Source of the DNA: a bacterium
GTDB taxonomy: Bacteria > Patescibacteriota > Dojkabacteria > B142 > OLB20
Reading direction: 5' to 3'
DNA: 51,691 nt
Assembly (NCBI GenBank): GCA_021463645.1
Contig: JAJTYI010000006.1
Coordinates: 1-51,691 of the forward strand
Position 1 is the stretch's first letter; each line of letters starts with the position of its first letter. This document shows positions 14,300 to 46,391 of this stretch, one piece after another. The position numbers and the translations under genes are program-made. The notes beneath the pieces were generated by a model. That model ran no database searches. It saw nothing but the letters and a program-made list of their open reading frames with translations, and was not told the origin of the DNA.

Positions 14300-14329
14300 T
14301 TTACGAATGAAGTGGTTGTCTAGTATAAT
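14300..14329 (+). promoter_or_regulatory. putative sigma70-type promoter for the large glycan array
   Basis: TTTACG (14300-14305), an 18-nt spacer, then TATAAT (14324-14329), inside a 300-bp non-coding gap. Confidence 0.3.
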
Positions 14330-14364
14330 TAACAACCATTACTTAATCTAACCTAATTCTGCCC

Positions 14365-14387
14365 ATCCTGATTCGTCGGGATTTTTT
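14365..14387 (+). terminator. terminator/attenuator-like hairpin (UUCG tetraloop + U6) 13 nt before the start codon
   Basis: ATCCTGA (14365-14371) pairs with TCGGGAT (14376-14382) to give 7 bp including one G-U pair. The loop is TTCG and a T-run follows to 14387. Confidence 0.4.
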
Positions 14388-14400
14388 AACATTAGTTACA

Positions 14401-17400
14401 ATGTTTGAATTGGAAATTGTCGTCCCCGTTCTCAACGAAGAGAGGGCAGTGACAGAGTTAGTAAAACGTATCGACAAGGTCATGCGATCTGATAAAATCA
14501 CATACCGTATAATCTTTGTTGATGACCATTCTACAGATAGAACTGCGGAGATTATCCATTCGTTGGAAAACAGCTATCCTATACTACTTCACATAAAACA
14601 AGGTAAACCTGGCAAAGCGTACTCAATCCTTGAGGGTGCAAAACTTGCTGAGTCTGAGAAAATCGCCATGATTGATGGCGATCTACAATATCCACCCGAG
14701 GTGCTTCCACGCATGTTCAGACTTTCTGAAGTCTACGGAGTCGTTGTGGCAGATAGAAAAAAAGACCACTTGTCGTTAGTACGCAGAATTCTATCAAATC
14801 TCAATTCACAAATGATTGGTAAACATCTGCTTGGGCTGGACTGTGATTCTCAATCCGGACTTAAAGTATTCAGGAGGGAAATAATTGAACAGTTAAACAA
14901 AAAGGAGTTACAGCCCTGGGCACTTGATATGCCCTTGCTATACGCTGCGTTGAACATGCGTTATAAAATAGGAACAGTAGAGATTGATTTTGTAGATCGA
15001 GCGCATGGGAAATCCAAAGTCAATTTCATCAAAACCACATTTGAAATTATCTCCACCGCAATATCGCTTAAATTTTTCTCTTCAAAAATAGTATCTATAA
15101 AACCGAACAAAGACTCAATGCTTGGGTCAGGAGTTATTTATAAAAACAAGAAGTATATAACTCATACTACGCTTCCGCATTCCGAGTCCGCGCTATATAC
15201 GTTTACACGCACACAGAAGATAATTATTTTAGGTTTGATTGCAGGAGTATTAGCAGGATTAATACTAAACCCGCTGAATGCATTGATTGTGATTGTGGCA
15301 ATTTTGAGTTTGATCTATTTTGCAGATGTTGTTTTTGGAGCGTATGTATTGGCAAAGAGCTTACATTATCCTCCAGAATTAACATTTGATGGAGATGAAT
15401 TAAATAATTTGAAAACGAAAGACCTGCCTACCTACAGTATTCTTTGTCCACTATACAAAGAAGGTAATATATTGCCTGAATTTGTAAAATCCATCAGAAA
15501 TCTCGACTGGCCAAAGCGTAAATTAGATGTCTTAATACTACTTGAAAAAGATGATAAAGAGACTCTTGCTGCTGCAAAAAAGCTTAAACTTCCAAAGTAC
15601 ATTAGAGTTATTGTAGTTCCCGATTCACAACCCAGAACCAAACCGAAGGCTTGTAATTATGGTCTACAACTAGCGAAAGGGGAATACGTCGTAATTTTCG
15701 ATGCAGAAGACAAACCAGACCCACTTCAATTAAAGAAAGCGTATCTCGGATTCCGAAAAAGTGGGGAGAAAGTATTCTGTTTGCAGTCTAAACTTAATTA
15801 CTACAATCCAGACGATAATCTTCTGACCAGACTTTTTACAGCGGAATATTCTCTGTGGTTCGATGTTATCCTTCCTGGATTGCAATCAATCAAAACAACA
15901 ATCCCACTTGGAGGAACAAGCAATCACTTCCGGACAAAGCAATTGATTACTATGCAAGGTTGGGATCCATTTAATGTTACCGAAGATTGCGATCTCGGTG
16001 TCAGAATCTTCAAAGCAGGATATTCAACAGCAATAATCGACTCAACGACTTACGAAGAAGCAAATAGCTCTCCGAAAAATTGGGTTAGACAACGCTCCCG
16101 ATGGATTAAGGGCTATATGCAAACATATTTGGTTCATATGAGAAATCCTCTAAAATTTCTACGAGAGCACGGAATTCATGCTCTCATCTTTCAATTAATT
16201 ATAGGTATGCGAATCAGCTTTATGCTGATTAACCCTTTATTATGGTTGGCTACATTTGTCTATTTTGCATTTAGACCTTTTGTTGGGGAATACATCGAAG
16301 CACTTTATCCGTCATGGATCTTCTATATCGCAGGAATTTCACTTGTCGGTGGAAATTTTATGTACATATTTAATTATATGATTGGATGTGCGAAGAAGGA
16401 ACACTATAGTTTGATTAAGTATGTTTTCTTTATACCACTTTATTGGATTCTTGCTAGTGTAGCCGCATTCAAAGCTGCGCAACAGCTGATCTTTAAACCG
16501 CACTTCTGGGAGAAAACTCATCACGGGCTGCATCTTGCCGATACAAAGAAAAAGTCCCAACAACAGAAGACAGAGAAAGAAAGACTGTGGATACCGGGAT
16601 GGCTGGAAGGAAGACTCACAGCCAATGGCAATTTTAACCTTCACTACTCACGAGCTAAAACCTTTTTGAGAACCGGTGGTATTGGGGTCGTACTTTTGGT
16701 TGGCTCATCCGTTTTTGCTAATTTTCTGGATTTCCTGACTAGTTCTTACCTGGGCAGAAACCTCGGATCAGAAGAATTCGGGCTAATAGGTCTTATGGGA
16801 AGTTTTATGTTTATTGTTTCACTGATCTCGTCAGGAGTAAACAAAACTATTTCCCATCAAACTGCTTTCGTATTTGGTAAATATGGCTCCCCTGTCGGGA
16901 AATTATGGTATGAACACAGACCAAAAGTGTTAAAGGTTTCGTTGGTTTTCACTTTAATGTGGATACTAATAGTTCCGTTTACAGAAAACTTTTTTAACTC
17001 ACATACTCTATTTCCGTTTATTGTGTTTACTCCAGTTTGGGCTATCCTAATGCTCAGAGCCTGGGATGGTGGTTATTTAGAAGGAGGACTGAAATTTGTC
17101 TGGTTGGCAGTATTGACTTCAGTAACTGCTTCCTCAAAGCTTATATTCTCCGTAGCTTTTGTTACTTCAGGAGCGGAGCAATTAGTCTATGCAGCAGGCC
17201 CATTATCTCTATTTGTAGGTCTATGCGGAGGATGGATAGTTGCTAGAAAAGTAGCTAATCGCAACCTTAGCAGCAAAACTGCCCCTTCGAAAATAAGTAT
17301 GAAGTTTTCAAAAAGGTTCCTTGCTACTGCTACAATGACGAAGATTTCCTCAATTTCATTTCTGAGTTTGGACTTGATCTTTGTTAAACACTTCTTGTCC

Positions 17401-19158
17401 GCTTCAGAAGCGGGTCAATATGCATTGCTTGTATTGGTGGGTAGGATTATCTACATTGTGGGTGGTTTTTCCTCCCAATTTATACTGCCTGTCATAAGTA
17501 AAGAAAAAGGACAAGGTGTAAAACAAAGTAGAACATCCACATTAATAATGCTAAGTGTAATTGCGTCAACCTTGCTGGCGTTTTTCATGGTTGGTCCATT
17601 AGGGTTTTTAGTTGTCCCGCTGATGTTTGGAGAAAATGCCTTGCCGATAATCCCTTATCTAACACCGTTTGCGATGGCAATGGTACTTTTCACGGTTGCC
17701 TATAGTCTTGTAACTTATCATCAGGCTAGAAAAGAATATGCTTTTGCCTTCACAGGGATTATGACCGCTACAGTTCAGTTTGTATGTTTATTTCTTTTCC
17801 ATGCCAATATCGGTCAAGTGGTAGCTGGGATGTTTGTAAGTGGAGCGTTCTTCCTGGTAACCACCTTAGTCATGCATATACGATACGATGATATTAAACA
17901 CATCCAGTCAAATTTAACTGACTTTTGGGATTTAATAATTAGACCGAAAAAGAACTTCACTGAAATAACCGAAAATCCCAGACTGAATATTTTGATATAT
18001 AACTGGCGTGACACAAAGCATGTCTGGGCTGGCGGAGCAGAGGTATATGTACATGAATTGGCAAAGCGCTGGGTAGCAGAGGGAAATAATGTTACTATCT
18101 TTTGCGGAAATGACGACGAAAATGAGCGCCATGAAATAATTGATGGAGTAAGCGTAATTCGCAGGGGCGGATTATACACAGTGTATCTTTGGGCTGTTTT
18201 GTACTATTTGCTTAGACTTAGAGGGAAATATGATTTGATTGTTGACAGTGAAAACAGTATGCCGTTTTTTACTCCTCTATTCGCCAGAATTCCTAAAATC
18301 GGTTTAATCCATCACGTTCACAGTGACATTATCTTGAAAGAGTTGAAATTACCTATTACCCGAATCCCTGCGGCAGTTGTTGCTAAATATGTCGAAAGTA
18401 CACTAATGCCTGTTCTCTACAGAAATGTCCAAATGGTAACGGTGTCAGAGTCGAGTAAAAAAGATATGGAAAAGCTTGGTTTTGGTAAAAACAAACCAAT
18501 ACAAATTATCAACCCCGGAATTGACCTGGATGTATTGAAACCCGGTCCTAAATCAAAAGAACCCACACTTCTATATCTGGGCAGACTAAAACCATACAAA
18601 TCCATAGACACTCTAATTAAGGCGGCTGATGAATTAAGAGAAACAATTCCAAATCTGAAAGTTAAAATAGCCGGTTTTGGAGAAAGTAGAAAAGACCTGG
18701 AAAGATTAACCAAGAAGCTAGGTTTGCAAAAGTATGTAGAATTTCTTGGCAGAGTATCTGAAACCGACAAAGTGCGATTACTTGGAGAGGCCTGGGTATT
18801 TGTTCAACCATCGACATTCGAAGGCTGGGGAATCTCAGTATTGGAAGCCAATGCTTGTGGAACTCCAATTGTTGCCTCAAGAGTTCCAGGACTTATTGAT
18901 TCAGTCAAAAATCCGTCAACCGGCTATACCGTCAAGGTGAAAGACGAAAAAGCTTTTGCAAAGGCTATTGCAAAATTACTTAACGACAATGATCTGAGAG
19001 AAAAATTTTCAGACAATTCCATAAAATGGGCAGAACAATTTAACTGGGAAGTAAAATCGCAGGAATTCATGAAACTGATAGAATTTGAGATTACTGCCAA
19101 TAATTTACCTCTGATGTACTCAGAAACAATGAGCACTAATAATAATGAGATTGACTAA
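14401..19158 (+). CDS. four-module glycan assembly protein: GT2 (polyprenol-P-sugar synthase-like) + processive GT2 synthase-like + MOP/Wzx-like flippase + GT4
   Basis: Uninterrupted 1585-aa ORF with four modules.
- Module 1: VPVLNEE, FVDDHSTD and DGDLQYPPE (14674-14700).
- Module 2: DAEDKPD (from 15700), TEDCDLG and QRSRW (16090-16104), plus flanking TM helices.
- Module 3: about 12 TM helices, roughly 16650-17880.
- Module 4: a GT4 with E-x7-E (EGWGISVLEA from 18820). Confidence 0.85.
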   Translation: MFELEIVVPVLNEERAVTELVKRIDKVMRSDKITYRIIFVDDHSTDRTAEIIHSLENSYPILLHIKQGKPGKAYSILEGAKLAESEKIAMIDGDLQYPPEVLPRMFRLSEVYGVVVADRKKDHLSLVRRILSNLNSQMIGKHLLGLDCDSQSGLKVFRREIIEQLNKKELQPWALDMPLLYAALNMRYKIGTVEIDFVDRAHGKSKVNFIKTTFEIISTAISLKFFSSKIVSIKPNKDSMLGSGVIYKNKKYITHTTLPHSESALYTFTRTQKIIILGLIAGVLAGLILNPLNALIVIVAILSLIYFADVVFGAYVLAKSLHYPPELTFDGDELNNLKTKDLPTYSILCPLYKEGNILPEFVKSIRNLDWPKRKLDVLILLEKDDKETLAAAKKLKLPKYIRVIVVPDSQPRTKPKACNYGLQLAKGEYVVIFDAEDKPDPLQLKKAYLGFRKSGEKVFCLQSKLNYYNPDDNLLTRLFTAEYSLWFDVILPGLQSIKTTIPLGGTSNHFRTKQLITMQGWDPFNVTEDCDLGVRIFKAGYSTAIIDSTTYEEANSSPKNWVRQRSRWIKGYMQTYLVHMRNPLKFLREHGIHALIFQLIIGMRISFMLINPLLWLATFVYFAFRPFVGEYIEALYPSWIFYIAGISLVGGNFMYIFNYMIGCAKKEHYSLIKYVFFIPLYWILASVAAFKAAQQLIFKPHFWEKTHHGLHLADTKKKSQQQKTEKERLWIPGWLEGRLTANGNFNLHYSRAKTFLRTGGIGVVLLVGSSVFANFLDFLTSSYLGRNLGSEEFGLIGLMGSFMFIVSLISSGVNKTISHQTAFVFGKYGSPVGKLWYEHRPKVLKVSLVFTLMWILIVPFTENFFNSHTLFPFIVFTPVWAILMLRAWDGGYLEGGLKFVWLAVLTSVTASSKLIFSVAFVTSGAEQLVYAAGPLSLFVGLCGGWIVARKVANRNLSSKTAPSKISMKFSKRFLATATMTKISSISFLSLDLIFVKHFLSASEAGQYALLVLVGRIIYIVGGFSSQFILPVISKEKGQGVKQSRTSTLIMLSVIASTLLAFFMVGPLGFLVVPLMFGENALPIIPYLTPFAMAMVLFTVAYSLVTYHQARKEYAFAFTGIMTATVQFVCLFLFHANIGQVVAGMFVSGAFFLVTTLVMHIRYDDIKHIQSNLTDFWDLIIRPKKNFTEITENPRLNILIYNWRDTKHVWAGGAEVYVHELAKRWVAEGNNVTIFCGNDDENERHEIIDGVSVIRRGGLYTVYLWAVLYYLLRLRGKYDLIVDSENSMPFFTPLFARIPKIGLIHHVHSDIILKELKLPITRIPAAVVAKYVESTLMPVLYRNVQMVTVSESSKKDMEKLGFGKNKPIQIINPGIDLDVLKPGPKSKEPTLLYLGRLKPYKSIDTLIKAADELRETIPNLKVKIAGFGESRKDLERLTKKLGLQKYVEFLGRVSETDKVRLLGEAWVFVQPSTFEGWGISVLEANACGTPIVASRVPGLIDSVKNPSTGYTVKVKDEKAFAKAIAKLLNDNDLREKFSDNSIKWAEQFNWEVKSQEFMKLIEFEITANNLPLMYSETMSTNNNEID

Positions 19159-20140
19159 TTCCTCCAGTTCATCAAGATTTGAAGTCTTGTTAAACAGTTT
19201 TTTCTCTGTTTTCTCTTTACGGCGGAAAGAGCTTAATCAGATGGGTGTTCCGACGGAGGCCCCCAAAATGCTTGCCAGAGGGAGATATCAATTCACAGCA
19301 TATCTAAGTAATAAATCCTACTTCTTTAGAATAGCTGAATACAAAGATCTGGATGGAAATAAATATATCGCAAAAATCTGGACATCGAAGAACAAAGACA
19401 AAAATTATTACAGAATAAAAAACGAGTTGGTTGCTTACAGAACTTTTTGGGAAATACTACAATCAGAAGAATATAATAAGATTACAAAAGATTTCGATAT
19501 TTCCATTCCAAAACTTGAGTATTATGAAGAAGAAAAAACCAGGTTAGTTTTACTTTTGGAAAAGATTCCAGGTGTACCTCTCGGAGAAATACCGAATAAG
19601 GAAAGGATCAGAGTAGTGGATCAAAGCATCACTTTTTTGCAGACCCTATTTGAAAGCTCTGAAAACCCCACAAAACTTGGATTAAGAAATATAAAGCCAC
19701 TATTCTTTATATTAATGATCTTTTTGCTGATGCCACTTTCACTCGCAAAGAATCTGAAACTGGCACCCTCTTTACTCAAGCTGTATCTTTTTGTTCCACT
19801 GAGTGTTATCCCTATTTTAAAATGTAAAGAACTTTCCTTTGTTCATAGAGACTTGCATCCATGGAACATCATCAGTGTAAAAGAGAAATCGTATTTATTC
19901 GACCTTGAAATTATTTCAATTGGGCCCAAGAGTCACGACCTAGGGAATGCAATATTCAGGAGCTGGAACATGGAGGATAACGCAGCGTTGATTGAATATA
20001 TGAATAATTTAAAGACTAGTACCAATTATTATGAATTGAAATTTATGTGTATATATGGACTTGTCTATGATCTAGTTTTTAATGTGTCTGATACAATACC
20101 TCGGGCTAAAGGCTTTATCGAATATTTAAAATACTTTTAA
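19145..20140 (+). CDS. APH/choline-kinase-fold phosphotransferase with hydrophobic insert
   Basis: 331 aa. Lys motif YIAKIW, catalytic loop HRDLHPWN (19844-19867), metal-binding FDLE, and a hydrophobic insertion of about 45 aa (FFILMIFLLMPLSLA...). It overlaps the upstream gene by 14 nt. The start is uncertain because of internal Met codons at 33 and 42. Confidence 0.65.
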   Translation: MRLTNSSSSSRFEVLLNSFFSVFSLRRKELNQMGVPTEAPKMLARGRYQFTAYLSNKSYFFRIAEYKDLDGNKYIAKIWTSKNKDKNYYRIKNELVAYRTFWEILQSEEYNKITKDFDISIPKLEYYEEEKTRLVLLLEKIPGVPLGEIPNKERIRVVDQSITFLQTLFESSENPTKLGLRNIKPLFFILMIFLLMPLSLAKNLKLAPSLLKLYLFVPLSVIPILKCKELSFVHRDLHPWNIISVKEKSYLFDLEIISIGPKSHDLGNAIFRSWNMEDNAALIEYMNNLKTSTNYYELKFMCIYGLVYDLVFNVSDTIPRAKGFIEYLKYF

Positions 20141-20154
20141 ACTTTTTACTAATT

Positions 20155-21255
20155 TTGAGAATTATAATTTCCACCTACGATGATATTAAGAATCCGAATT
20201 ACGGCGGAGGTGGAGCTATTGCTTTGCATGAACTGGCAAAACGACTGTCAAAAAACTACGAAGTTAAAGTTATCAGCTGGAATCACTCCGGCGTCAAAAC
20301 TGAAAGTATTGACGGAGTTGAATACACGCGTATAGGATTCAGTTTCATTTCTCCTAAAATTGCGATGTTTCTGTTTCAAATGGTTTTACCTTTGTTTGCG
20401 ATATTTAAAAAGTTTGACCTCTGGATAGAAAGTTTCGCTCCGCCGTTCACTACTGCGTTCTTGCCGATGTTTACAAGGAAACCTGTTGTTGGAGTAGTTC
20501 ATATGCTGGCTGCAGAAGACATGAAACGAAAATACAAAGTAAATTTCAGTATAATCGAAAATGCCGGAATCAGAAGATATAAGTACATAGTTTCAACCCA
20601 GGAGATAGTTCGCGAAAAAATACTTGCTATAAACCCCAAATGCAACTGTGCTGTTATAAGCAACGGGATTGACAAGATTTATCCTGAAAAGTTCACAAAG
20701 AAAAATCAATTATTATTTCTAGGTCGCATTGAAGTTGATCAAAAAGGTCTTGATTTGCTGGTATCTGCTTTTAAAAAATTCAGCGAATTATCAAACAAAA
20801 AATATCAATTAGTAATTGCAGGTTCAGGACTTGATGCTGATATGCAGAATCTGCAACAACTTGTCAAAGAAGCCGGGCTGGGAAAGCAGATTGTTCTTGC
20901 TGGCAGAGTTGAGGGTGAAGCAAAAGCAGACTTGATGAAAGAGTCTGTCGCAATGGTTTTGACCTCACGGTTTGAAACATTTTCTATGGTTGCTTTGGAA
21001 TCGCTGGCTTTTGGTTTACCATTAATTACATTTGATATCGAAGGACTGAGATGGATTCCTGATAATGCTGTCAGGAAGGCGAAATCATTTGACACAGACG
21101 ACCTGGCAGAAAGAATGTTGGAAGTCTCGACCCATGGAGAGCTTAGAGAAACTATGCGAACCGAAGGTTTAAAATACGCAGAGAAATACACCTGGGACAA
21201 TATTGCTATATCTTATGAAAAACTTATTGAAACAATAACTAATGCCAAACACTAA
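20155..21255 (+). CDS. GT4 family glycosyltransferase
   Basis: 366 aa with a TTG start. N-terminal GGGGAIALHELAKRL and the E-x7-E motif FETFSMVALE. Confidence 0.85.
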   Translation: MRIIISTYDDIKNPNYGGGGAIALHELAKRLSKNYEVKVISWNHSGVKTESIDGVEYTRIGFSFISPKIAMFLFQMVLPLFAIFKKFDLWIESFAPPFTTAFLPMFTRKPVVGVVHMLAAEDMKRKYKVNFSIIENAGIRRYKYIVSTQEIVREKILAINPKCNCAVISNGIDKIYPEKFTKKNQLLFLGRIEVDQKGLDLLVSAFKKFSELSNKKYQLVIAGSGLDADMQNLQQLVKEAGLGKQIVLAGRVEGEAKADLMKESVAMVLTSRFETFSMVALESLAFGLPLITFDIEGLRWIPDNAVRKAKSFDTDDLAERMLEVSTHGELRETMRTEGLKYAEKYTWDNIAISYEKLIETITNAKH

Positions 21256-22018
21256 CCAATTAATCACAGAAATTCTTGCGAAAAAGCTGAGATGCGTCTT
21301 TATCTCTCCTCATCTTGACGATGCTATTTTATCGTGTGGAGGGCTGATGCAAGAACTTGCCCGTAAAACTGAGCTTACAGTGATAAATGTATTTACATCA
21401 GCGCATAGTGGCCCATACACTTTATCCGCGCGGAAATTCTTGCAGGCTTCGGGAGACTTCAGTAATGCAGCGGAACTTTATCAAGCTAGAATAGAAGAAG
21501 ATCAGCGAGCGTTATTGAAGCTCGGAGTGAATGTTACCAATCTCGGTTTAAAAGACGCATTGTTTAGAACAAAACCTAAAGAGAGTTTATTTGGCAAAAT
21601 TTTGCCGGAATTTAACCATGTTTATCCGACTTATAAATGGCACATTACTGGATCAGTTAACAAAAACGATCCGGCGTTGGCTGATCTACGCAAGCAGCTC
21701 GAAAAACTCAATCTGAAAGAAGCTGTAGTATTTGCTCCTTATGGAATCGGAAATCATGTCGATCATCAATTAGTAAGCGCTGTGAGCAGAAGTTTATTCA
21801 AAAAACTTGTTCTGTATTCTGATTTTCCATATAACATTCGATTAGATGATTATGGTTCTGAAAACGGTATGTACCGCAAGATAGAACTCACACCAAATCT
21901 TAAAGAAAAAATAAAATTGATTAAATTTTATCAAACTCAATTTACCGGATTGTTCTCTGACGGAGAAGTTCCGGGACATAAAGAAGTTTATTTTGTTAAA
22001 AAAGTCGATGGAAAATAA
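21242..22018 (+). CDS. PIG-L/LmbE family N-acetylglucosaminyl deacetylase
   Basis: 258 aa with the zinc-site motifs ISPHLDDAILSCGG and GNHVDHQ. It overlaps the GT4 gene by 14 nt. Confidence 0.85.
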   Translation: MPNTNQLITEILAKKLRCVFISPHLDDAILSCGGLMQELARKTELTVINVFTSAHSGPYTLSARKFLQASGDFSNAAELYQARIEEDQRALLKLGVNVTNLGLKDALFRTKPKESLFGKILPEFNHVYPTYKWHITGSVNKNDPALADLRKQLEKLNLKEAVVFAPYGIGNHVDHQLVSAVSRSLFKKLVLYSDFPYNIRLDDYGSENGMYRKIELTPNLKEKIKLIKFYQTQFTGLFSDGEVPGHKEVYFVKKVDGK

Positions 22019-22559
22019 TCTTATCAAAAAATTAGTTAATGAAATAAAACTCTTTCGAAAAGCGCCGAAAGAGTATATTTGGGTTTATACATATCCCAAA
22101 GACCAGAAGGTCGAAATCGGAGAATATAACCCGAGAGTGAAAAAACAAGGGCAAGACTTGATTGATGAGATAAAAAAGAAATTACCTGAATTGAAAATCC
22201 ACTTCTTAGGGTCAGTAGCGCTTGAAATCCCTGGACAAAAAGATATAGACATATTTATAGAATGTCTACCGAAAAACTTCCATAACGTGATTCCAGAGCT
22301 AAACAAAATAATTGGTCAGCCAGTTAAAAAGAGGGAACGATTTGTTGAATGGGTTTTCGAAAAGAATGATATTCCTGTGGAATTATTTCTGATAGATCCA
22401 ACTTGGCAGAAATTCTTGAATAAGCTTTCCAATTTCGAAACATTAAAGAAGAATAGACAGGCCTATACCGAATTTAAGATAAAAAATATTGGCAAGTCAA
22501 TGCGTGAGTACGAACGAAAAAAGTATGAATTTTTTTACACTGGATTAAATTTCAAATAA
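22008..22559 (+). CDS. Pol-beta superfamily nucleotidyltransferase (GrpB/KNTase-like)
   Basis: The motif G-S-x10-D-I-D (GSVALEIPGQKDIDIFIE) is the minimal NTase signature. An alternative TTG start lies at 21993. Confidence 0.55.
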   Translation: MENNLIKKLVNEIKLFRKAPKEYIWVYTYPKDQKVEIGEYNPRVKKQGQDLIDEIKKKLPELKIHFLGSVALEIPGQKDIDIFIECLPKNFHNVIPELNKIIGQPVKKRERFVEWVFEKNDIPVELFLIDPTWQKFLNKLSNFETLKKNRQAYTEFKIKNIGKSMREYERKKYEFFYTGLNFK

Positions 22560-22583
22560 ATATAACTGGAACTGCAAAACATT

Positions 22584-23618
22584 ATGTTTACAAAACTGCA
22601 TATCAAAACGAATAAACCTCATCCGAAGAAATCGGATTTTATCACTATACCGAGGGTTCTTTATGGTTATCTTTCTAATTTTGTTTTTAGAGAAAAAATA
22701 AACTTAAAGGAATTTCCGGCAATCCAAGGTTATGAACTGGTTAACCTCATTAGGATTCAAGGTGGTGCCGACCAAAACAGTGTTGGTATCTATCGAAATG
22801 AGGACGGCAAGAAGGTTATTATTAAAAGTTTGACCTATAAAAAGAATCTTCTTGCTGCGAGCCAACTTAGGCATGAAGGAGCGATGTTAGATTTACTACA
22901 AGAATATCAATATTCAGGTAAGCTGCAAGAGATACGATTTCCCAAGTTGTACGAAGTAATCAACAACCCCGATTCTATTTCTATCGTGATGGAATTTGTA
23001 GAAGGAAAGCCTATTGCCGAGCTTGACACGGTAACTAAACTAAAACTACTTGATGATTGTATTAACTGCTTCAAGCAAACAACACATGACTTACCGCAAG
23101 AAATGTTTTCTAAAATTCCAAAAAGGACAAAAACCTTTATGACTATTACTTTTTTTGTCTATTTATTATTTGCGCTCAAACAAAATTTAAAATTAACAGG
23201 ATTGTTGCTTAGTGTAGCTGTTCAATTTTATAAATATTCTGTAATTTCCCGTTTCCAGAAGACATCTTTTGTATTGACTCACAAAGCACTGCATGAGGAA
23301 AATGTTATTGTAAGCGGGCACTCGGCCACTATTATTGACCCTCAAACAGGAATATTAGCGGAAGAATTCTCAGAAATTGCAATTATCCCGAAGTTCTATT
23401 TGAAAGATACTGGTATAATTGAGATTAAGAAATTCTTACTGAAATTTTTGCATTCCGAAGACGAAGTAAAGAATTTTTTTAGATTATCGATTTATTATAC
23501 GATACAAACTTTGGCATTGACCGGTAAAGACTATCCGAAATACGAAGAAGCTAAAAAGTATCTGGAGATTTTAAACAGTACATTATTTAAAGATTTATTA
23601 AAGTCACTAAAGGCCTAA
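22584..23618 (+). CDS. APH-fold kinase paralog lacking the catalytic Asp (putative pseudokinase)
   Basis: 344 aa and collinear with the 19145 gene, including the same hydrophobic insert. The catalytic loop reads HKALHEEN (23280-23303), with Ala where HxD is expected. The downstream metal-binding Asp (IIDPQ) is retained. Confidence 0.55.
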   Translation: MFTKLHIKTNKPHPKKSDFITIPRVLYGYLSNFVFREKINLKEFPAIQGYELVNLIRIQGGADQNSVGIYRNEDGKKVIIKSLTYKKNLLAASQLRHEGAMLDLLQEYQYSGKLQEIRFPKLYEVINNPDSISIVMEFVEGKPIAELDTVTKLKLLDDCINCFKQTTHDLPQEMFSKIPKRTKTFMTITFFVYLLFALKQNLKLTGLLLSVAVQFYKYSVISRFQKTSFVLTHKALHEENVIVSGHSATIIDPQTGILAEEFSEIAIIPKFYLKDTGIIEIKKFLLKFLHSEDEVKNFFRLSIYYTIQTLALTGKDYPKYEEAKKYLEILNSTLFKDLLKSLKA

Positions 23619-23628
23619 AAACTTAATA

Positions 23629-25227
23629 ATGAAATTATCAAATACTACAATAAAAATTATAAACATCATGACCCAGGGCATACTGCTGATATTTGTAGTG
23701 GTGATAATGATGGGTTCAATCAGAGGGATTGCAGGGAATCCGACAGCAGAAGAACTAAACTCCCCGATCTGGAAAGAACAAGGTCCTTTCGAGTTGTCTC
23801 CCGAACGGGGTCGCTTTGCTTTGACATACTCTGTTTTGGAAGATCAATCTGTAATCTTTTCAATCCCTGTAGCTCGGTTTGTTACCCCTGATCTCGGTTA
23901 CACTGATGGAAACTTTGTCTCCCTATTCGCCCCCGGAGTATCATATCTTGTCATCCCAGGCTATCTGGTAGGTCAGTTTTTTGGTTTAGCTCAAGTCGGA
24001 ACTTACGCAGCGATCGGATTGTTTGCAATTATTAATTACCTCTTGATCAGATCAATAAGCCGTTCTTTAGGTGCGAATCCCTTGGCATCTGCAATTGGTG
24101 GGATGGTCTTTCTTTTTGCAACGCCTGCTTTTGCATATGGGGTTAGTCTTTATCAACATCACATTTCAACTTTTCTGATTCTGGCCGGAGTTTATCTGCT
24201 TATCAGATTTAAGAAAAGGTGGCTAGCCATGTTCTGTGTCTGGTTTTTATGTGCTTTGGGTATAGCAGTAGATAACCCCAATCTATTTATGATGTTCCCT
24301 TTGGGAGTCTTTGCATTGATGCAGGCCTTAAATATTGGAGAAACTGAAAAGAATCTAATTGTCAAAATTAACCCTAAATACTTTGTTGCGGTACTGGGAG
24401 TCGTTATACCTATTATGGGATTTATGTATTTCAACCATCTTTCCTACGGAAGTCCTTTCCAGCTTGGTGGTACAGTAAATAGTGTCGATGCTATTAATGA
24501 AGAAGGTCGACCAGTAACTTCTGAAGATATCCTAACACCGGAAGAACTTGCGCAAGCTGGAGAATTTGAAGAGGAAGACAGGTCGTCAGTCGGCTTCTTT
24601 GAAGCACGGGATATGGTAAACGGTCTTTACATCCATTTGCTGAGTCCGGATAGAGGAGTCTTGTATTTTACTCCGGTGATTCTTATAGGAGTGGTTGGGA
24701 TGTTTGTTTTGTATAAATCCAAAAATAAACATCTACCGCTATTGCTGAGTATTGTCGGTGTGAACCTTGTACTTTATTCTATGTGGGGTGACCCATGGGG
24801 AGGCTGGGCATTCGGGTCAAGGTATTTGATACCAAGTTATGCCATTATGTCGATATTCATTGCAATGGCATTAACCAGATATTCCAGAAATATTCTATTC
24901 TTGCTCGTTTTTGCTGTACTTTTTGTCTATTCAACTGCAATAAACACACTAGGAGCTATCACTACCAGTGCAATACCTCCCAAAGTACAAGCTATTCCGC
25001 TTGAAGCATTGACGGGAAAAGAAGAAAAATACAACTACAAAAGAAGCTGGGACTTCTTAAACAATAATGGCTCTAAATCATATTTCTACCAGGAATTTCT
25101 GAAAGATAGTGTTCCAGCAAAAGATTTTTATATCACTCTTGTGTCAGCGATATCCACAGTATCAATGATGACATTAATCGGAGTCTATTTAACAAAAAGA
25201 AAAACTAAAGATGAAAATAAAGATTGA
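23629..25227 (+). CDS. polytopic membrane protein, GT-C-like putative glycosyltransferase
   Basis: 532 aa with about 12 TM helices. The first extracytoplasmic loop carries acidic residues (ELSPERG, LEDQ), followed by a long loop and a C-terminal TM. It sits in an operon with the glycan genes. Confidence 0.45.
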   Translation: MKLSNTTIKIINIMTQGILLIFVVVIMMGSIRGIAGNPTAEELNSPIWKEQGPFELSPERGRFALTYSVLEDQSVIFSIPVARFVTPDLGYTDGNFVSLFAPGVSYLVIPGYLVGQFFGLAQVGTYAAIGLFAIINYLLIRSISRSLGANPLASAIGGMVFLFATPAFAYGVSLYQHHISTFLILAGVYLLIRFKKRWLAMFCVWFLCALGIAVDNPNLFMMFPLGVFALMQALNIGETEKNLIVKINPKYFVAVLGVVIPIMGFMYFNHLSYGSPFQLGGTVNSVDAINEEGRPVTSEDILTPEELAQAGEFEEEDRSSVGFFEARDMVNGLYIHLLSPDRGVLYFTPVILIGVVGMFVLYKSKNKHLPLLLSIVGVNLVLYSMWGDPWGGWAFGSRYLIPSYAIMSIFIAMALTRYSRNILFLLVFAVLFVYSTAINTLGAITTSAIPPKVQAIPLEALTGKEEKYNYKRSWDFLNNNGSKSYFYQEFLKDSVPAKDFYITLVSAISTVSMMTLIGVYLTKRKTKDENKD

Positions 25228-26815
25228 AAAAGCAAAAATTAACAATTTAACTCGTTTCCTAGAGAAGTACGCGCTAACGTTAATTGTATTAACTCTGATT
25301 CTAGTAGCAACTGCTACTTGGTATGGGTTCTATCAAAATGGATTAGGGCTCGCATACAACGACGCTCGCTCACATCTAAACATCGGTAGACGTGTGGTTG
25401 AAGGTTTGAAACCAGGCTTAGCACAGATTGGATCTGTTTGGTTACCTTTGCCTCATTTACTGATGGTACCTACCATCTGGAATGACTTCTTCTGGCATTC
25501 AGGACTCTCTGGAGCAATTCAATCTATGGGATCATTTGTCATTACGGGTGTTCTTGTTTACTTATATCTGAAAAAACTAGGAGCCTCAATATTTGCACGA
25601 TTCTTTGGTGTAGCATTATTTGCTCTAAATTTAAATGTATTGTATCTGCAATCTACCGCAATGACCGAGCTTCTTTTGATTGCTACCATGACTGCTGGTT
25701 CGTATTACTTGTTGTTGTGGGCGCAAAAGGAAAATATAGTTGATCTCTTAAAGTGTTCTCTATTTATAATGCTTTCCACTCTAATCCGCTATGATGGCTG
25801 GTTCTTGATTTTCATAGCTACTTTGATTGTGGCATTCCAAATATTTCGCAAGAAAGGCTACAAAGCGACAGAAGGAATGTCAATCATGTTTATGTCTCTT
25901 GGTGGTCTGGGTATTGCGCTTTGGGTGTTATGGAACTTATTAATTTTCGGAGATCCGTTATTTTTTGCTTTTGGTCCATTTTCAGCACATTCTCAGCAGG
26001 AACAGTTATTAGCAGCAGGGAATCTCCCTACAAAGGGCGATATACTACTCTCAATCAAAATGTATCTATATGCCCTATTTTTCAATTCTTATACATTACC
26101 GGCGATTCTAGGGCTATTTGGAGGTATAAGTCTATGGTTTAACAAGAAAATTAATATAAATGCTCGAATTGCCACCCTGGCTTTGATTGCTCCATTTATT
26201 TTCAACATTTTAGCACTTTACCTTGGTCACTCAGTTTTGTTTATTCAAGGGATTTCCGGAGATACTTGGTTCAATGTCCGCTATGGAGTCATGCTTGCCC
26301 CTTCTATTGCCATTTTCGTGGCATATTTAACTGATAAAGTGAAACCAATGAGATTCGTTATAGTGGGTCTTTCTTTGCTGGTTCTGACATTTGCTTTTCT
26401 AAACCAAGATGCTGTAACAATTGATGATGCACGAGTTGGCTCTAGTCAGAAAAATGTTTCCGAAGTATCCGACTGGCTAGCTGATAATGCAGGAGACAAA
26501 GAAGGCTTTATTCTAATTTCTGCTGCCTCTCATGATGCTATAATCTTTTCGTCAGGAATGGATATGAGTAGATTTATCCATGAAGGAACAGGACTTTACT
26601 GGGATACTGCTCTCGGGAACCCTGACCATTGGGCTAGATGGATAGTAATGAGAACCCATGACGAAAATGATTTAGTATTCAGAGAAATCAACAAAGAAGC
26701 ATGGGAAGATCATTACACACTTGTAGATCATTATCCTTTTGCAGATATCTACGAACTAAAACCAGATTCAATGACTAATTTAAACACAGAACCTGTTCTT
26801 AAGAATGTGAAATAA
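25211..26815 (+). CDS. GT-C fold (ArnT/PMT-like) membrane glycosyltransferase, putative
   Basis: 534 aa. It has 11-13 TM helices, a first-loop YNDARSH motif and a soluble C-terminal domain of about 130 aa. It overlaps the upstream gene by 17 nt. Confidence 0.5.
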   Translation: MKIKIEKAKINNLTRFLEKYALTLIVLTLILVATATWYGFYQNGLGLAYNDARSHLNIGRRVVEGLKPGLAQIGSVWLPLPHLLMVPTIWNDFFWHSGLSGAIQSMGSFVITGVLVYLYLKKLGASIFARFFGVALFALNLNVLYLQSTAMTELLLIATMTAGSYYLLLWAQKENIVDLLKCSLFIMLSTLIRYDGWFLIFIATLIVAFQIFRKKGYKATEGMSIMFMSLGGLGIALWVLWNLLIFGDPLFFAFGPFSAHSQQEQLLAAGNLPTKGDILLSIKMYLYALFFNSYTLPAILGLFGGISLWFNKKININARIATLALIAPFIFNILALYLGHSVLFIQGISGDTWFNVRYGVMLAPSIAIFVAYLTDKVKPMRFVIVGLSLLVLTFAFLNQDAVTIDDARVGSSQKNVSEVSDWLADNAGDKEGFILISAASHDAIIFSSGMDMSRFIHEGTGLYWDTALGNPDHWARWIVMRTHDENDLVFREINKEAWEDHYTLVDHYPFADIYELKPDSMTNLNTEPVLKNVK

Positions 26816-27826
26816 ATGATGGATTTTATTGAAAAGCTAAGAAGACTTAGCCTCAAACAAATTATATCTGGGCTTTTAATAGCAAGTTTAATTTCTTTAC
26901 TAGTTTATCTCTACATTTCATCGGTGCAAGGTCCAAATAAACCAGCTAATCTCTGGGAAGTTCAATCTATTGACACTATGAAATTTTCCAGAGACTTAGC
27001 TAGAGAAAAACTACTCGATAATACATTTGATGATGAGATTGATCATCAAGTTCGAAATATCAAAGAAATGGGTGCAACTCACGTCGCAGTTGGAACACCT
27101 TATGATGAAGAATTTGTACCCTATATTTCAAGATGGGTGAATATTGCACGAAAACATCGACTAAAAGTATGGTTTCGTGGGAACTTCTCTGGGTGGGAAC
27201 AATGGTTTGACTACGAGGAGATAACTCCAGAAAAACATCAGGAGCTAATTGAAACATTCATTATTAATAATCCACAACTTTTCCAGGATGGAGACATTTT
27301 CTCACCATGTACTGAATGTGAAAATGGAGTATTGGGAGACCCGAGACTCACTGGTAATGTCAATGACTATAAAATATTCTTAGTCGAAGAATATGATATA
27401 GCCAATACCGCATTCGATAGAATTGAAAAAGACGTTACAGTAAATTTCCCAATGAACGGAGATGTCGCAGAATTAATTATGGACAAACGGATGACTCAAA
27501 ATCTGGGAGGAGTAGTCGTCGTGGATCATTACGTCGAAAGACCGGAACAATTAGCAGAAGACGTAAGACATTATGCAAAATTAAGCGGGGGCAAAGTAAT
27601 CCTAGGCGAAATAGGTGTTTATATTCCTGGAATCCATCCCCAAATGAATGATTTCGAACAGGCAGACTGGCTTGAACAAGCTTTAACCCTGCTTGCAGAA
27701 GAGGAAGACCTTGCAGGTATTAATTATTGGGTATTTAGCGATGGTACAACACAACTATGGGAAAAAGATACTCGTGTGAAAAGGAAAGCAGCTGATGTTC
27801 TACAAAATTTCTATAAACCCAAGTAG
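26816..27826 (+). CDS. membrane-anchored protein, possible clan GH-A-like (TIM barrel) glycoside hydrolase
   Basis: 336 aa. N-terminal TM, a candidate acid/base ECENG and a candidate nucleophile LGEIG. The start codon abuts the upstream stop. Confidence 0.3.
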   Translation: MMDFIEKLRRLSLKQIISGLLIASLISLLVYLYISSVQGPNKPANLWEVQSIDTMKFSRDLAREKLLDNTFDDEIDHQVRNIKEMGATHVAVGTPYDEEFVPYISRWVNIARKHRLKVWFRGNFSGWEQWFDYEEITPEKHQELIETFIINNPQLFQDGDIFSPCTECENGVLGDPRLTGNVNDYKIFLVEEYDIANTAFDRIEKDVTVNFPMNGDVAELIMDKRMTQNLGGVVVVDHYVERPEQLAEDVRHYAKLSGGKVILGEIGVYIPGIHPQMNDFEQADWLEQALTLLAEEEDLAGINYWVFSDGTTQLWEKDTRVKRKAADVLQNFYKPK

Positions 27827-27907: not shown

Positions 27908-28975
27908 ATGAAAATAATAATTTTCGCTGGAGGGCATGGTACTCGATTATGGCCACTCAGTCGTAAAAACTCCCCTAAACAATTCGAGAAAATGTTTAAC
28001 GGTAAATCTACTCTACAATTGATGGTAGATAGGGTTAAACCCGTTGTTGGCATTGAGAACGTATATATCTCAACCGGTAGCGCTTTCAAAGAAATTATTG
28101 AAAGTCAGCTCACGGAACTTCCCAGGGAAAATATCATCTACGAACCAGCAAAAAGAGATCTCGCCGCTGCAGTTGGTCTTGCTTTTCTAACATTAAAACA
28201 AAAAGGTGTGAACGAGCCTGTAGCAATATTATGGTCTGATCATCTGGTTGAAAATCTATCTGAATTTCAAAATGCATTAAGAACAGGTGAGCAACTTATC
28301 AATGAAAATCCAAACAGATTTATCTTTAACGGAGAAATACCTAGATTTGCAAATAATAATTTAGGTTGGATTAGTATCGGAGACACAATTGAAAATAAAA
28401 ATGGATTTGATGTCCATAGTTTTGAAGGTTGGATTTACAGACCTGATGTCGAATTATGCAATCAATTATTCGAATCAAAAAGAGCAGTCTGGAACACTGG
28501 ATATTTTGTTACTTCCGTCGATTTTGTAACAGGCTTGTATGAACAGCATATGCCTGAAATGTATTCTCAACTTCAACAAGTAGTTTCCAGCCCTGAACTT
28601 TTGGATTCTATCTACCCGACAATTGAATCTATACATTTTGACGAAGCAATAGTACAAAAATCACGTCCCGATCAAGCTGTCGTATTGACTTTTGACATAG
28701 GATGGAGTGATCCTGGAACACTTTACGCCCTTAAAGAGGCCATAGTAGCTAATAAGAACGATAATTATATCCATGGTAAAGCAGTATCACTGGCTACTTC
28801 AGATTCTATGATCTTTAATCAACAACAGAATAAATTAGTCGCAACTATCGGACTAGACGGATTTGTAGTAGTAAATACAGAAGATGCTGTTTTCGTATGT
28901 CACAAGGACAATATTAGAGAGATAACACAGTTATTAAAACAAATTGAAGCAGAAGGATACTCGGAGTACCTATAA
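27908..28975 (+). CDS. manC: mannose-1-phosphate guanylyltransferase-like sugar nucleotidyltransferase
   Basis: 355 aa with N-terminal IIIFAGGHGTRLWPLSRKNSPKQF, typical of ManC/CpsB. Confidence 0.8.
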   Translation: MKIIIFAGGHGTRLWPLSRKNSPKQFEKMFNGKSTLQLMVDRVKPVVGIENVYISTGSAFKEIIESQLTELPRENIIYEPAKRDLAAAVGLAFLTLKQKGVNEPVAILWSDHLVENLSEFQNALRTGEQLINENPNRFIFNGEIPRFANNNLGWISIGDTIENKNGFDVHSFEGWIYRPDVELCNQLFESKRAVWNTGYFVTSVDFVTGLYEQHMPEMYSQLQQVVSSPELLDSIYPTIESIHFDEAIVQKSRPDQAVVLTFDIGWSDPGTLYALKEAIVANKNDNYIHGKAVSLATSDSMIFNQQQNKLVATIGLDGFVVVNTEDAVFVCHKDNIREITQLLKQIEAEGYSEYL

Positions 28976-30305: not shown

Positions 30306-30315
30306 ATTTATAAAT

Positions 30316-34746: not shown

Positions 34747-35829
34747 ATGAAAATAGGAATAGATTTATCCCCCGTAGAGAAAGATCCAGCCGGTATAGGC
34801 CAATATTCACTTAGCCTGTTCACTGAATTATGCAAGATTGATAAAAAGAACACATATATCGTTTACACCACTGCCCCATTTCTGTTCGCAAATACAAAAA
34901 ACAAAGTAATCAAAGTCAATAAAAAATTACCAGCCTATGGTAGTCGTTGGATGAAATCAGTTGCGGAAGATGCGAAAAAGGAAGAATTGGATTTATTCAT
35001 CTCCCCTTCTAATCATCTTTTCACAAAGCTATTTCCCAAAACTATTCAGTATGTACATGATTTGGCACCCATCAAATTTCCAAAATTCTTTGGACGACGA
35101 GCATCTCTGAAATACAAAGCCACACTCAAACTTGCCACTTCAAAAGCACTACAAATTTTAACTATCAGCCAGTCAGTGAAAGAGGAAATCATCCATGATT
35201 ACCCGAAGACAAAAGGAAAAATTAACTTTATCTATCCTGGCCTAAATAAATGGATTGAGCTCGAGAACAAAGATCCTAATGCAATTATGGATAAATATGC
35301 CATTGATTATGACTACATTCTTACCTTGAGCACACTTGAACCTCGAAAGAACCATATTAATATGATTAAAGCATTCCATTTATTCAAAAAATCCACTAAC
35401 TCACCACTGAAATTCGCAATTATTGGCAAGAAGGGTTGGTTCTTTGATGAGATTTTCAAAATCGTTGCAGACCTCAACCTAGAGACCGAGGTTAAGTTCC
35501 TAGGCTATGTACCTAATCAAGAACTCAACCCAATTATAAAGAAAGCAAAAGCATTTATGTTCATGAGCTTTTATGAAGGATTCGGTATTCCTCCCATCGA
35601 GGCATTAAGTCTAAATGTGAAAACACTTGTTTCCGATATCCCAATCTTCCATGAAGCTTTTCAGGACAAAGTCGTGTATACAGATCCCTATTCACCTGAT
35701 AAAATAGCCCTTGCAATACAAAAGATCCTGGAACGAAATTACCAAAATACAGAGAAGTTCGTAGAGGATCGATATAGCTGGGAAAAGTCAGCGCACAAAC
35801 TATTATCGATTATTAATGAGTATAGATAA
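34747..35829 (+). CDS. GT4 family glycosyltransferase
   Basis: 360 aa with the E-x7-E motif YEGFGIPPIEA and KIGIDLSP at the N-terminus. Confidence 0.85.
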   Translation: MKIGIDLSPVEKDPAGIGQYSLSLFTELCKIDKKNTYIVYTTAPFLFANTKNKVIKVNKKLPAYGSRWMKSVAEDAKKEELDLFISPSNHLFTKLFPKTIQYVHDLAPIKFPKFFGRRASLKYKATLKLATSKALQILTISQSVKEEIIHDYPKTKGKINFIYPGLNKWIELENKDPNAIMDKYAIDYDYILTLSTLEPRKNHINMIKAFHLFKKSTNSPLKFAIIGKKGWFFDEIFKIVADLNLETEVKFLGYVPNQELNPIIKKAKAFMFMSFYEGFGIPPIEALSLNVKTLVSDIPIFHEAFQDKVVYTDPYSPDKIALAIQKILERNYQNTEKFVEDRYSWEKSAHKLLSIINEYR

Positions 35830-39427: not shown

Positions 39428-39484
39428 GATTTACTATAACTAATGGTAGAATTCTACTATAATAAACTGCTAAATTAAACTTCC

Positions 39485-40294: not shown

Positions 40295-40303
40295 TATTTT
40301 TCA

Positions 40304-42698: not shown

Positions 42699-42699
42699 A

Positions 42700-43224: not shown

Positions 43225-43289
43225 TAATTATTAGATAGAATCCCTCATCATTGTCATTCCTGCGTATTGTTTTAACTCCTGCGCTTTAT

Positions 43290-46370: not shown

Positions 46371-46391
46371 TTGGGGCTTATTCCAATATAA

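Follow-up and report, generated by a model that had tools for sequence, protein, structure and literature searches.

Patescibacteria are abundant, mostly uncultured bacteria whose envelopes are almost unknown, and those of the Microgenomates type are uncultured organisms with small genomes. Here we report a four-module open reading frame (ORF) of 1585 aa from a patescibacterium of the Dojkabacteria (GenBank assembly GCA_021463645.1), located on contig JAJTYI010000006.1, of which positions 1 to 51,691 of the forward strand (51,691 nucleotides, hereafter the window) were analysed. The predicted protein joins a family 2 glycosyltransferase (GT2) resembling lipid-sugar synthases (module 1), a processive-type GT2 synthase (module 2), a transporter module of 12 predicted transmembrane (TM) helices with the fold of the MOP superfamily (module 3) and a family 4 glycosyltransferase (GT4; module 4). 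We favour, with modest confidence, the reading that two cooperating subsystems of glycan assembly are fused in this chain and build one envelope glycoconjugate together with partners encoded downstream. The features of the window are collected in Table 1.

Integrity and conservation of the four-module chain

As an earlier note on this DNA had claimed, the ORF is one open frame from ATG to stop, and it is overlapped by short antisense ORFs only. At a G + C content of about 38%, stops make up about 6.6% of random triplets, and base-composition arithmetic gives a probability of about 1e-47 for 1585 open codons by chance. The motifs that the note had listed were all recovered in the translation: DGDLQYPPE at aa 92-100 (nt 14674-14700) in module 1, DAEDKPD at aa 434-440, TED at aa 527-529 and QRSRW at aa 564-568 (nt 16090-16104) in module 2, and E-x7-E (E1474...E1482, from nt 18820) in module 4. 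Each is invariant in a family alignment of 32 sequences.

An orthologue search over 5.8 billion proteins yielded at least 120 clusters with the same single chain (1513-1620 aa, 98-100% query coverage, 47-81% identity), which were drawn from NCBI, JGI, ENA and Logan and come from Microgenomates-type assemblies. The clusters, where named, are called "glycosyltransferase" or "XagB" and are assigned to Candidatus Microgenomates, Amesbacteria, Curtissbacteria, Gottesmanbacteria, Woesebacteria or Patescibacteria. Stops or frameshifts at the module junctions, which the note had named as a possible refutation, were not found in these clusters, whose junctions are intact.

Split forms of the chain in some relatives (1/2-3-4, 1-2/3-4 and 1-2-3/4, the slash marking the split) could suggest that a mis-assembly or frameshift joined separate adjacent genes, and the splits may themselves be errors or real. 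Against such an artefact stand the uninterrupted clusters, which stem from different projects and assemblers, the alignable junction segments, the invariant residues in junction 1/2 (T254, H255, L258, A264 and Q272 in the 32-sequence alignment) and a nucleotide composition that is even along the whole ORF. We regard its probability as close to negligible; conservation of the same fusion in at least 120 clusters argues for an undescribed envelope sugar pathway and not for an assembly error. The literature searched for a fusion of this kind in Patescibacteria, Microgenomates or the candidate phyla radiation (CPR) contained no published description and nothing else of relevance, in agreement with the note, whose author knew of no described example; the database names are generic.

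Module assignments

Module 1 had been described as a GtrB/Dpm1-like GT2, and the profile and structure-database matches bear this out. PF00535 spans aa 6-163, and the best match among PDB sequences was the DPMS of P. furiosus (5mlz; 1.1e-18, aa 3-232), followed by ArnC (1e-14) and GtrB sll0501 (2e-12) over the region aa 2-232, while the matches ranking after these three span just aa 4-101. By sequence comparison, module 1 is thus nearest to lipid-phosphate-charging enzymes across the whole catalytic domain, and not to generic GT2s. Its DxD motif is D92/D94, with D92-G-D94 invariant in 32 orthologues. NCBIfam returned PgfS and ArnC, with scores below the equivalog cut-offs. The Pfam search gave no GtrA_DPMS_TM match in the 1585-aa protein; the homologue of module 1 in Clostridium drakei carries this domain (PF04138). 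The two TM helices that follow module 1 belong to the module-2 unit, and stand-alone relatives of module 2 align from aa ~249-263 onward.

The assignment of module 2 to the processive-type GT2s was likewise confirmed, by PF13641/PF13632 within aa 343-621, by the NCBIfam model PgaC_IcaA over aa 325-699 and by BcsA (4hg6; 1e-11) in the PDB search. The BcsA alignment covers DAED (aa 434-437), TED and QRSRW. Four hydrophobic segments lie at aa ~593-695, and the unit ends in the motif PxxWEKTxHG (aa 700-709), which is invariant in the 32-sequence alignment. No cyclic di-GMP receptor domain, be it PilZ or MshEN, was matched in the 1585-aa protein by Pfam.

Relatives of module 2 outside Patescibacteria, with 46-50% identity, occur in Chloroflexota, Solirubrobacterales, Bacillota and others. 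Nine were scanned, and most of these carry one to six N-terminal copies of MshEN in the place of module 1; the MshEN-bearing relatives belong to Chloroflexota, Actinomycetota and Bacillota. The relatives include the MshEN-GT2 synthase of Clostridium drakei (48% identity over 469 aa), whose locus has the gene order ManC homologue, PMT_2-type GT-C glycosyltransferase, DPMS-like GT2 with GtrA_DPMS_TM, MshEN-GT2 synthase and BcsB-like gene. Two Chloroflexota loci have an in-frame fusion of the synthase with a domain resembling mem534, a GT-C glycosyltransferase encoded downstream in the window (see below). Three Chloroflexota loci (L069, L070 and L082) encode synthases of ~1340-1380 aa with five or six tandem MshEN domains before the GT2, an unusually high copy number. 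Two named families were considered for module 2 and rejected: NfrB of E. coli (GT2-MshEN), with 20% identity over 174 aa, and clostridial CcsA, which is a PilZ-bearing BcsA orthologue with other partners.

The polytopic region that the note had taken for a MOP/Wzx-like exporter of 12 TM helices fared less simply: the window's own segment has no profile match, and the assignment to the MOP superfamily (PST) was made because orthologues match PF01943 and the predicted fold resembles structures of that superfamily. PF01943 (Polysacc_synt, Wzx/PST) was found in 14 of 21 orthologous module-3 segments (best 2.8e-12) and PF13440 in 2. An AlphaFold (AF2) model built from the family alignment (pLDDT 84, pTM 0.82) retrieved MATE, MurJ and WzxE with Foldseek at a probability of 1.0 and TM-scores of 0.63-0.75; the family profile gave no matches among PDB sequences. 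Hydropathy averaged over the family has twelve peaks from aa 771 to 1148, in a positive-inside pattern with both termini in the cytoplasm, and near the predicted helix centres K913 and D991 are invariant and K996 nearly so. Fold and family therefore support a Wzx-like nature of module 3, as far as models and orthologues go. A search of 1.84 billion representative sequences with the MOP-module profile found 492 relatives at E<=1e-30; among the best 150 of these, 53 have the size of a stand-alone transporter, 51 continue for ~400 aa beyond the MOP module and 9 have the size of the four-module protein. Junctions 2/3 and 3/4 are variable linkers in the 32-sequence alignment.

Module 4 is the C-terminal GT4 that the note had recognised. 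The two halves of its GT-B fold match PF13439 and PF00534 (aa 1211-1377 and 1381-1543), both glutamates of the E-x7-E motif are invariant, and the best match among PDB sequences was MshA (3c48; 6.5e-21), followed by PimA and PimB.

Table 1. Features of the window (aa positions refer to the 1585-aa protein; single positions mark the start of a feature).
Feature	Position (nt)	Strand	Evidence
Ser/Thr/Pro/Gly-rich protein, 257 aa	12417-13190	+	Sequence
5' leader: promoter-like TTTACG-18-TATAAT (14300-14329), hairpin and T-run (14365-14392)	14300-14392	+	Consensus scan, sequence
Four-module ORF, 1585 aa, ~18 predicted TM helices	14401-19158	+	ORF call, Pfam, alignment, hydropathy
Module 1 (aa 1-232), polyprenyl-phosphate glycosyltransferase-like GT2 (DPMS/GtrB/ArnC/PgfS type)	14401-15096	+	Pfam, NCBIfam, PDB
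Pre-membrane segment (aa 233-272) and two TM helices (aa ~273-318), N-terminus of module-2 synthase unit	15097-15354	+	Alignment, hydropathy
Module 2 (aa 325-709), membrane-embedded processive-type GT2 synthase	15373-16527	+	Pfam, NCBIfam, PDB, alignment
Lys/Gln-rich variable cytoplasmic linker (aa 710-760), split point 1-2/3-4 in relatives	16528-16680	+	Alignment, hydropathy
Module 3 (aa 761-1160), 12-TM MOP-superfamily (PST/Wzx-like) transporter module	16681-17880	+	Orthologue Pfam, AF2, Foldseek, hydropathy
Module 4 (aa 1196-1560), GT4 (GT-B fold)	17986-19080	+	Pfam, PDB, alignment
Kinase-like protein (APH/ePK-like, HRDLHPWN), 331 aa, internal hydrophobic hairpin	19145-20140	+	Pfam APH 5.8e-7, sequence
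Second GT4	20155-21255	+	Pfam
PIG-L-family de-N-acetylase, no predicted TM segment	21242-22018	+	Pfam, hydropathy
GrpB	21993-22559	+	Pfam
Second kinase-like protein	22584-23618	+	Sequence
mem532, polytopic (~11 TM) GT-C-like membrane protein	23629-25227	+	Hydropathy, alignment
mem534, PMT_2-type GT-C glycosyltransferase	25211-26815	+	Orthologue Pfam, alignment
p336, N-terminal TM anchor and predicted (beta/alpha)8 barrel of clan-GH-A glycanase type	26816-27826	+	AF2, Foldseek
ManC-like (mannose-1-phosphate guanylyltransferase-like) NTP transferase	27908-28975	+	Pfam NTP_transferase and ManC_GMP_beta-helix
Two adjacent genes resembling ATP-citrate lyase subunits	29025-32133	+	Citrate_synth_N and Citrate_bind; Ligase_CoA and Citrate_synt
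Further GT4	34747-35829	+	
GtrA/DPMS_TM-family small membrane protein	35816-36367	+	Pfam PF04138 2.3e-14
737-aa protein with two GT4 C-terminal domains	36826-39039	-	Pfam
GT2s	39485 and 46392		Pfam
RmlC-like	40304		Pfam
RmlD	41248		Pfam
RmlB-like	43863		Pfam
RmlA	47360		Pfam
Hexapeptide acyltransferase	48913		Pfam
BKACE-family enzyme	49585	-	Pfam
UDP-glucose/GDP-mannose dehydrogenase	50469	-	Pfam

Topology and module shuffling

Family-averaged hydropathy distributes the predicted TM helices 2 + 4 + 12 along the chain: two peaks (aa 282 and 304) precede the catalytic domain of module 2, four (aa 602, 616, 648 and 683) follow it, and the twelve of module 3 complete the set. The alternation of Lys/Arg-rich loops places the GT4, the Lys-rich linker at aa 710-760 and both ends of the MOP module inside. 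This pattern predicts a cytoplasmic position for all three glycosyltransferase domains.

A scan of GTDB species genomes returned at least 595 loci, of which the best 80 were taken for comparison by BLAST of the window proteins against all ORFs of the loci; architectures were counted over 81 loci. The form 1-2-3-4 was the commonest multi-module architecture (15 of the 81 loci), module 2 alone was found in 25, and the remainder comprised 2-3-4 and 1-2 (8 each), 1-2-4 and 1-2/3-4 (5 each), 2/3-4 (3) and other, rarer architectures (12). The gene order of the stretch from 14401 to 27826 is kept in an Amesbacteria locus at 48% identity.

Single genomes can hold two paralogous systems, as two loci were found in each of two metagenome-assembled genomes (MAGs; L033 and L041 in one, L049 and L050 in the other). 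One of these MAGs encodes a 1-2-4 fusion together with all the partners, beside a 1-2 protein accompanied by a mem534-like GT-C protein only; the other combines 1-2/3-4 with 2/3-4. Many MAG records labelled "uncultured Gammaproteobacteria", "Bdellovibrionales" or "Pseudomonadales" (L006-L009, L012, L021, L024, L028-L032 and others) carry the same Patescibacteria-type operon at 44-55% identity, and their organism labels are probably unreliable.

Partner genes

The genes between 14401 and 27826 are closely packed or overlapping on the plus strand. The first kinase-like gene starts 14 nt before the end of the four-module ORF, and its orthologue takes the same position in the Amesbacteria locus. 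The two kinase-fold proteins are paralogue-like, each with a hydrophobic hairpin in mid-sequence; the second has HKALHEEN where the first has HRDLHPWN and, judged from this sequence, may be a pseudokinase. In some relatives, kinase-like domains are fused to PIG-L and GrpB (locus L031). The second GT4 and PIG-L are fused together in some loci.

The GT-C assignment of mem534 is based on PF13231 (PMT_2), which was found in 12 of 24 orthologues (best 4.6e-8), and on D51, which is invariant after the first predicted TM segment. The neighbouring mem532 is probably also a GT-C protein, with E55 and D88 invariant near the N-terminus and PMT_2 matched by 2 of 19 orthologues; the profiles of both proteins gave no matches among PDB sequences. 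For p336, a model built from database homologues (AF2, pLDDT 90) gave GH113 beta-mannanase, GH2, GH10, PslG and GH5 as the best Foldseek matches, a result that later backed a marginal profile match to beta-glucuronidase among PDB sequences (0.013); glutamates E128, E167, E169 and E265 are invariant. Homologues of p336 mostly have ~410-430 aa, with an extra C-terminal CarboxypepD_reg-like domain (PF13620) that is absent from the 336-aa version of the window. The ManC-like enzyme, whose homologue heads the Clostridium drakei locus, could possibly supply GDP-mannose.

Partners were counted in 59 loci with at least 8 kb of downstream sequence, 39 of them with module 3 or 4 and 20 without. The most constant partner of module 2 is mem534, which was present in 35 of 39 loci with module 3 or 4 and in 13 of 20 without. 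The corresponding counts were 33/39 and 2/20 for mem532, 26/39 and 3/20 for p336, 21/39 and 0/20 for a separate second GT4, and 15/39 and 0/20 for PIG-L. Two sets thus co-vary: set A comprises module 2 (plus module 1) and mem534, and set B comprises the MOP module, the module-4 GT4, mem532, p336, the second GT4 and PIG-L. In the window, the partners of both sets are all encoded downstream of the four-module ORF.

A Pfam scan of the window ORFs (those of <100 aa and three short ones excepted) detected no initiating phosphoglycosyltransferase and no Wzy, Wzz or LCP; such genes may lie elsewhere in the genome. A classical Wzx/Wzy locus was accordingly rejected as an explanation, since the scanned ORFs include no phosphoglycosyltransferase, Wzy or Wzz.

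Functional model

The note had proposed a self-contained assembly line. Spelled out, module 1 would charge a carrier lipid, module 2 would polymerise on the carrier, the MOP module would flip the product and the GT4 would add a further sugar, all without other proteins. The four activities do lie on one chain in that order, in the commonest multi-module form of the family, and lipid-primed processive synthases exist, as in the synthase-dependent O-antigen of Salmonella O:54. Synthases of the BcsA/PgaC type, however, export their own product through a built-in channel, so that module 2 would need no flippase, and a GT4 placed in the cytoplasm by the predicted topology could not act after flipping. 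The proposal is further disfavoured by the fusions 1-2-4, without the MOP module, and 2-3-4, without module 1, by the conserved partners at the outer face (the GT-C proteins and the glycanase-like protein), and by the different partner sets with which modules 1-2 and 3-4 co-vary, which point to two fused subsystems instead of one linear pathway. We consider a self-contained line very unlikely.

The two-subsystem reading that we favour takes the chain for one polypeptide of the inner membrane. Module 2 of the first arm (A) would polymerise a beta-linked glycan from a nucleotide sugar and thread it through its own TM channel. The beta linkage would be expected from the inverting mechanism of GT2 enzymes, and a glycanase resembling those of clan GH-A is in keeping with such a polymer. 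Module 1 would load a hexose onto polyprenyl phosphate; that this hexose is mannose is weakly suggested by the DPMS best match and the ManC genes. Once flipped, the lipid-sugar would serve as donor for mem534, which would glycosylate the polymer or another envelope acceptor at the outer face. In the second arm (B), the module-4 GT4, the second GT4, PIG-L and perhaps the kinase-like proteins would make a glycan or glycolipid of the N-acetylglucosamine/glucosamine (GlcNAc/GlcN) type at the cytoplasmic face. The MOP module would carry it across the membrane, either Wzx-like as a lipid-linked intermediate or PelG-like by polymer export, and mem532 and the anchored p336 would act on it outside. The MOP module might also, or instead, flip the lipid-sugar of module 1; all three modes of action are possible, and we do not choose among them. 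The analysis shows the domain identities, the conservation of one chain, the pattern of topology, the co-variation with partners and the shuffling of modules; the substrates, the identity of the flipped lipid intermediate and the convergence of both arms on one product are what we infer here. Rosetta-stone links between the parts are provided by the 1-2/3-4 splits, the relatives that consist of a MOP module and ~400 aa, and the synthase-GT-C fusions of Chloroflexota.

Several points weigh against this reading. Module 3 of the window on its own has no Pfam match, even at E<=10, and no NCBIfam match, and the four helices after module 2 were counted from hydropathy alone. The occurrence of 2-3-4 and 1-2-4 makes module presence combinatorial, so that no strict pairing of module 1 with the MOP module, or of the MOP module with the GT4, is shown. 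A substrate of the MOP module linked to a lipid pyrophosphate is unsupported, as the scanned window ORFs contain no phosphoglycosyltransferase, Wzy or LCP ligase. It could also be the GtrA-family protein encoded 17 kb downstream, and not the MOP module, that flips the lipid-sugar, to go by its family; its gene overlaps the end of a further GT4 gene, and BLAST found no GtrA-like genes beside the related loci, a weak negative, since proteins of this kind are short and divergent. The NCBIfam scores are far below the equivalog cut-offs and do not allow substrate names to be carried over to the modules, which leaves the sugar specificities as guesses from best matches.

A lipoglycan route like those to glycosylphosphatidylinositol (GPI) or mycobacterial lipomannan (LM), drawn by analogy only, would be an appealing special case of arm B combined with the GT-C enzymes. 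The GT4s and PIG-L would make a GlcN glycolipid anchor at the inner face, the MOP module would flip it, the two GT-C enzymes would extend it with mannose from the polyprenyl-phosphate-mannose of module 1, and module 2 would add or supply a beta-glycan domain. The component set fits: a GT4 nearest to MshA, PimA and PimB, PIG-L, a flippase-like MOP module, a DPMS-like GT2 nearest to an archaeal DPM synthase, a ManC-like gene and two GT-C-like proteins. The membrane-inserted kinase-like proteins could modify a lipid-bound intermediate, and the lack of a phosphoglycosyltransferase among the scanned window ORFs agrees with an anchor other than polyprenyl pyrophosphate. PIG-L and the second GT4, however, occur in just 15 and 21 of the 39 suitable loci, the known GPI and LM pathways have no place for module 2, which is the part conserved best, and any lipid acceptor is conjectural, the resemblance itself being one of general knowledge. 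This route is unlikely, in our estimate.

The halves of the chain might instead be two independent exopolysaccharide synthases fused by chance, a BcsA-like one (modules 1-2) and a Pel-like GT4/MOP pair (modules 3-4), that make two polymers. PelF (GT4) and PelG (a 12-TM MOP protein) are a known lipid-independent synthase/exporter pair (PMC13254593), two-module MOP-GT4 proteins are common among the relatives, and the halves co-vary with different partners. A shared product is favoured, however, by fusions that recur in many permutations and by an operon linkage that is constant; partners resembling PelD/PelE were not seen, PF01943 is what the orthologous MOP modules match and PelG is not among the families listed for them, and the Pel deacetylase is extracellular where the PIG-L of the window has no predicted TM segment. 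We rate a chance fusion as quite unlikely and retain the reading of two cooperating subsystems.

Comparison with known systems

Three-component glycosylation systems consist of a GtrB-type synthase, a flippase (GtrA, SMR or MATE/MOP) and a GT-C transferase (PMC11127046, PMC7389260), and in that of Citrobacter a MOP-superfamily (MATE) protein, ORF14, is the flippase for the polyprenyl-phosphate-sugar (PMC11127046). The window resembles them in that module 1 is nearest to DPMS, ArnC, GtrB and PgfS and that a MOP-fold transporter and two GT-C-like proteins are encoded together with it. A complete set (module 1, the MOP module and/or the GtrA-like gene, and mem534) is thus present, and we infer that its members are functionally coupled. 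Unlike in those systems, the synthase-like GT2 and the transporter are fused, and fused also to a processive backbone synthase and a GT4. Module 1 differs from its Clostridium relative in having lost the GtrA/DPMS TM domain, and a separate GtrA-like gene is found in the window.

With the BcsA-BcsB-BcsZ cellulose and PgaC poly-N-acetylglucosamine (PNAG) systems, module 2 shares the motifs D, DxD, TED and QxxRW, hydropathy predicts TM helices on either side of its catalytic domain, and the locus has, like synthase-dependent systems, a glycanase-like protein predicted to be extracytoplasmic (p336). The closest likeness is to the uncharacterised MshEN-GT2 synthases of Chloroflexota, Solirubrobacterales and Bacillota, with 48-50% identity over ~470 aa. 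Unlike BcsA and these synthases, the window protein has neither PilZ nor MshEN, and module 1 sits where MshEN does in the relatives outside Patescibacteria. Unlike in cellulose systems, no BcsB-like gene was found among the scanned window ORFs (the Clostridium drakei relative has one), and the constant partner is a GT-C protein.

Module 3 is like Wzx and MurJ in its predicted 12-TM MOP fold, the PF01943 matches of its orthologues, its N-in/C-in topology and the invariant charged residues near predicted helix centres. It differs in being covalently joined to glycosyltransferases and in a sequence that is itself below Pfam detection, and the locus differs from Wzx/Wzy pathways in lacking, among the scanned window ORFs, a phosphoglycosyltransferase, Wzy and a chain-length regulator.

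The Pel system pairs a GT4 (PelF) with a MOP exporter (PelG), and its deacetylase acts outside the cell (PMC13254593). Compared by description, the window shares the pairing of a GT4 with a 12-TM MOP module, a de-N-acetylase in the locus and frequent MOP-GT4 relatives; unlike Pel, it shows no PelD/PelE, and its deacetylase is of the PIG-L type and not of the extracellular carbohydrate esterase (CE) type.

The phosphatidylinositol mannoside (PIM)/LM and GPI pathways comprise GT4 priming (PimA/PIG-A), PIG-L, an unknown flippase, a DPM/PPM synthase and GT-C mannosyltransferases. The same enzyme classes occur in the locus, a likeness at the level of class. Module 2 has no counterpart in those pathways.

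Other features of the window

The promoter-like site upstream of the four-module ORF matches the consensus at 10 of 12 positions, the hairpin that follows has a stem of 7 bp, and the T-run ends 9 nt upstream of the ATG, where there is no obvious Shine-Dalgarno sequence; judged from sequence, this region may be a leader or attenuator, or may have arisen by chance. Two genes upstream of the ORF, the 257-aa protein has a long Ser/Thr/Pro/Gly-rich stretch, one hydrophobic segment near the C-terminus and no Pfam match, and is a candidate substrate for GT-C-type O-glycosylation.

The pair of genes resembling ATP-citrate lyase subunits lies within the glycan-biosynthesis island and has no counterpart in 82 related loci; ATP-citrate lyase seems unusual for organisms with such reduced metabolism. 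The region from 36826 to 51626 is a sugar-nucleotide and glycosyltransferase island, which includes genes for dTDP-rhamnose (RmlA, RmlB-like, RmlC-like and RmlD). Scans of the window for tRNA genes and Rfam families gave no matches.

Significance

Each module belongs to a known superfamily, and the pathway logic is shared with synthase-dependent, Gtr-type and Wzx- or Pel-type systems. What is new is the conserved covalent union of the four parts, the replacement of a cyclic di-GMP (c-di-GMP) receptor domain by a lipid-sugar synthase, and the tight association of GT-C proteins with a synthase family that is uncharacterised. The fusions act as a "Rosetta stone" that ties together a lipid-sugar synthase, a processive synthase family, a MOP transporter, a GT4, GT-C proteins and a glycanase. 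If the chain works as a unit, it would be a compact structural target for the coupling of polymer synthesis, lipid-donor supply and translocation, and it may help to identify the cargo of MOP proteins that have no Wzy partner.

The recurrence of the gene and its operon in hundreds of loci from genome collections suggests an important role in the envelope. A more specific proposal, which we regard as doubtful but worth stating, is that Microgenomates-type Patescibacteria use a hybrid machine that couples a synthase channel to a Wzx-like flippase on one polypeptide for a major, undescribed envelope glycoconjugate. This would be a beta-glycan, either anchored to a lipid or linked to the wall, with decorations added on the outer side of the membrane. 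Synthase-dependent and lipid-linked routes are alternatives in textbooks; if the proposal is true, this machine merges the two, the latter in a GPI/lipomannan-like form, and its product could have the function that lipoglycans or teichoic acids have in other monoderm bacteria.

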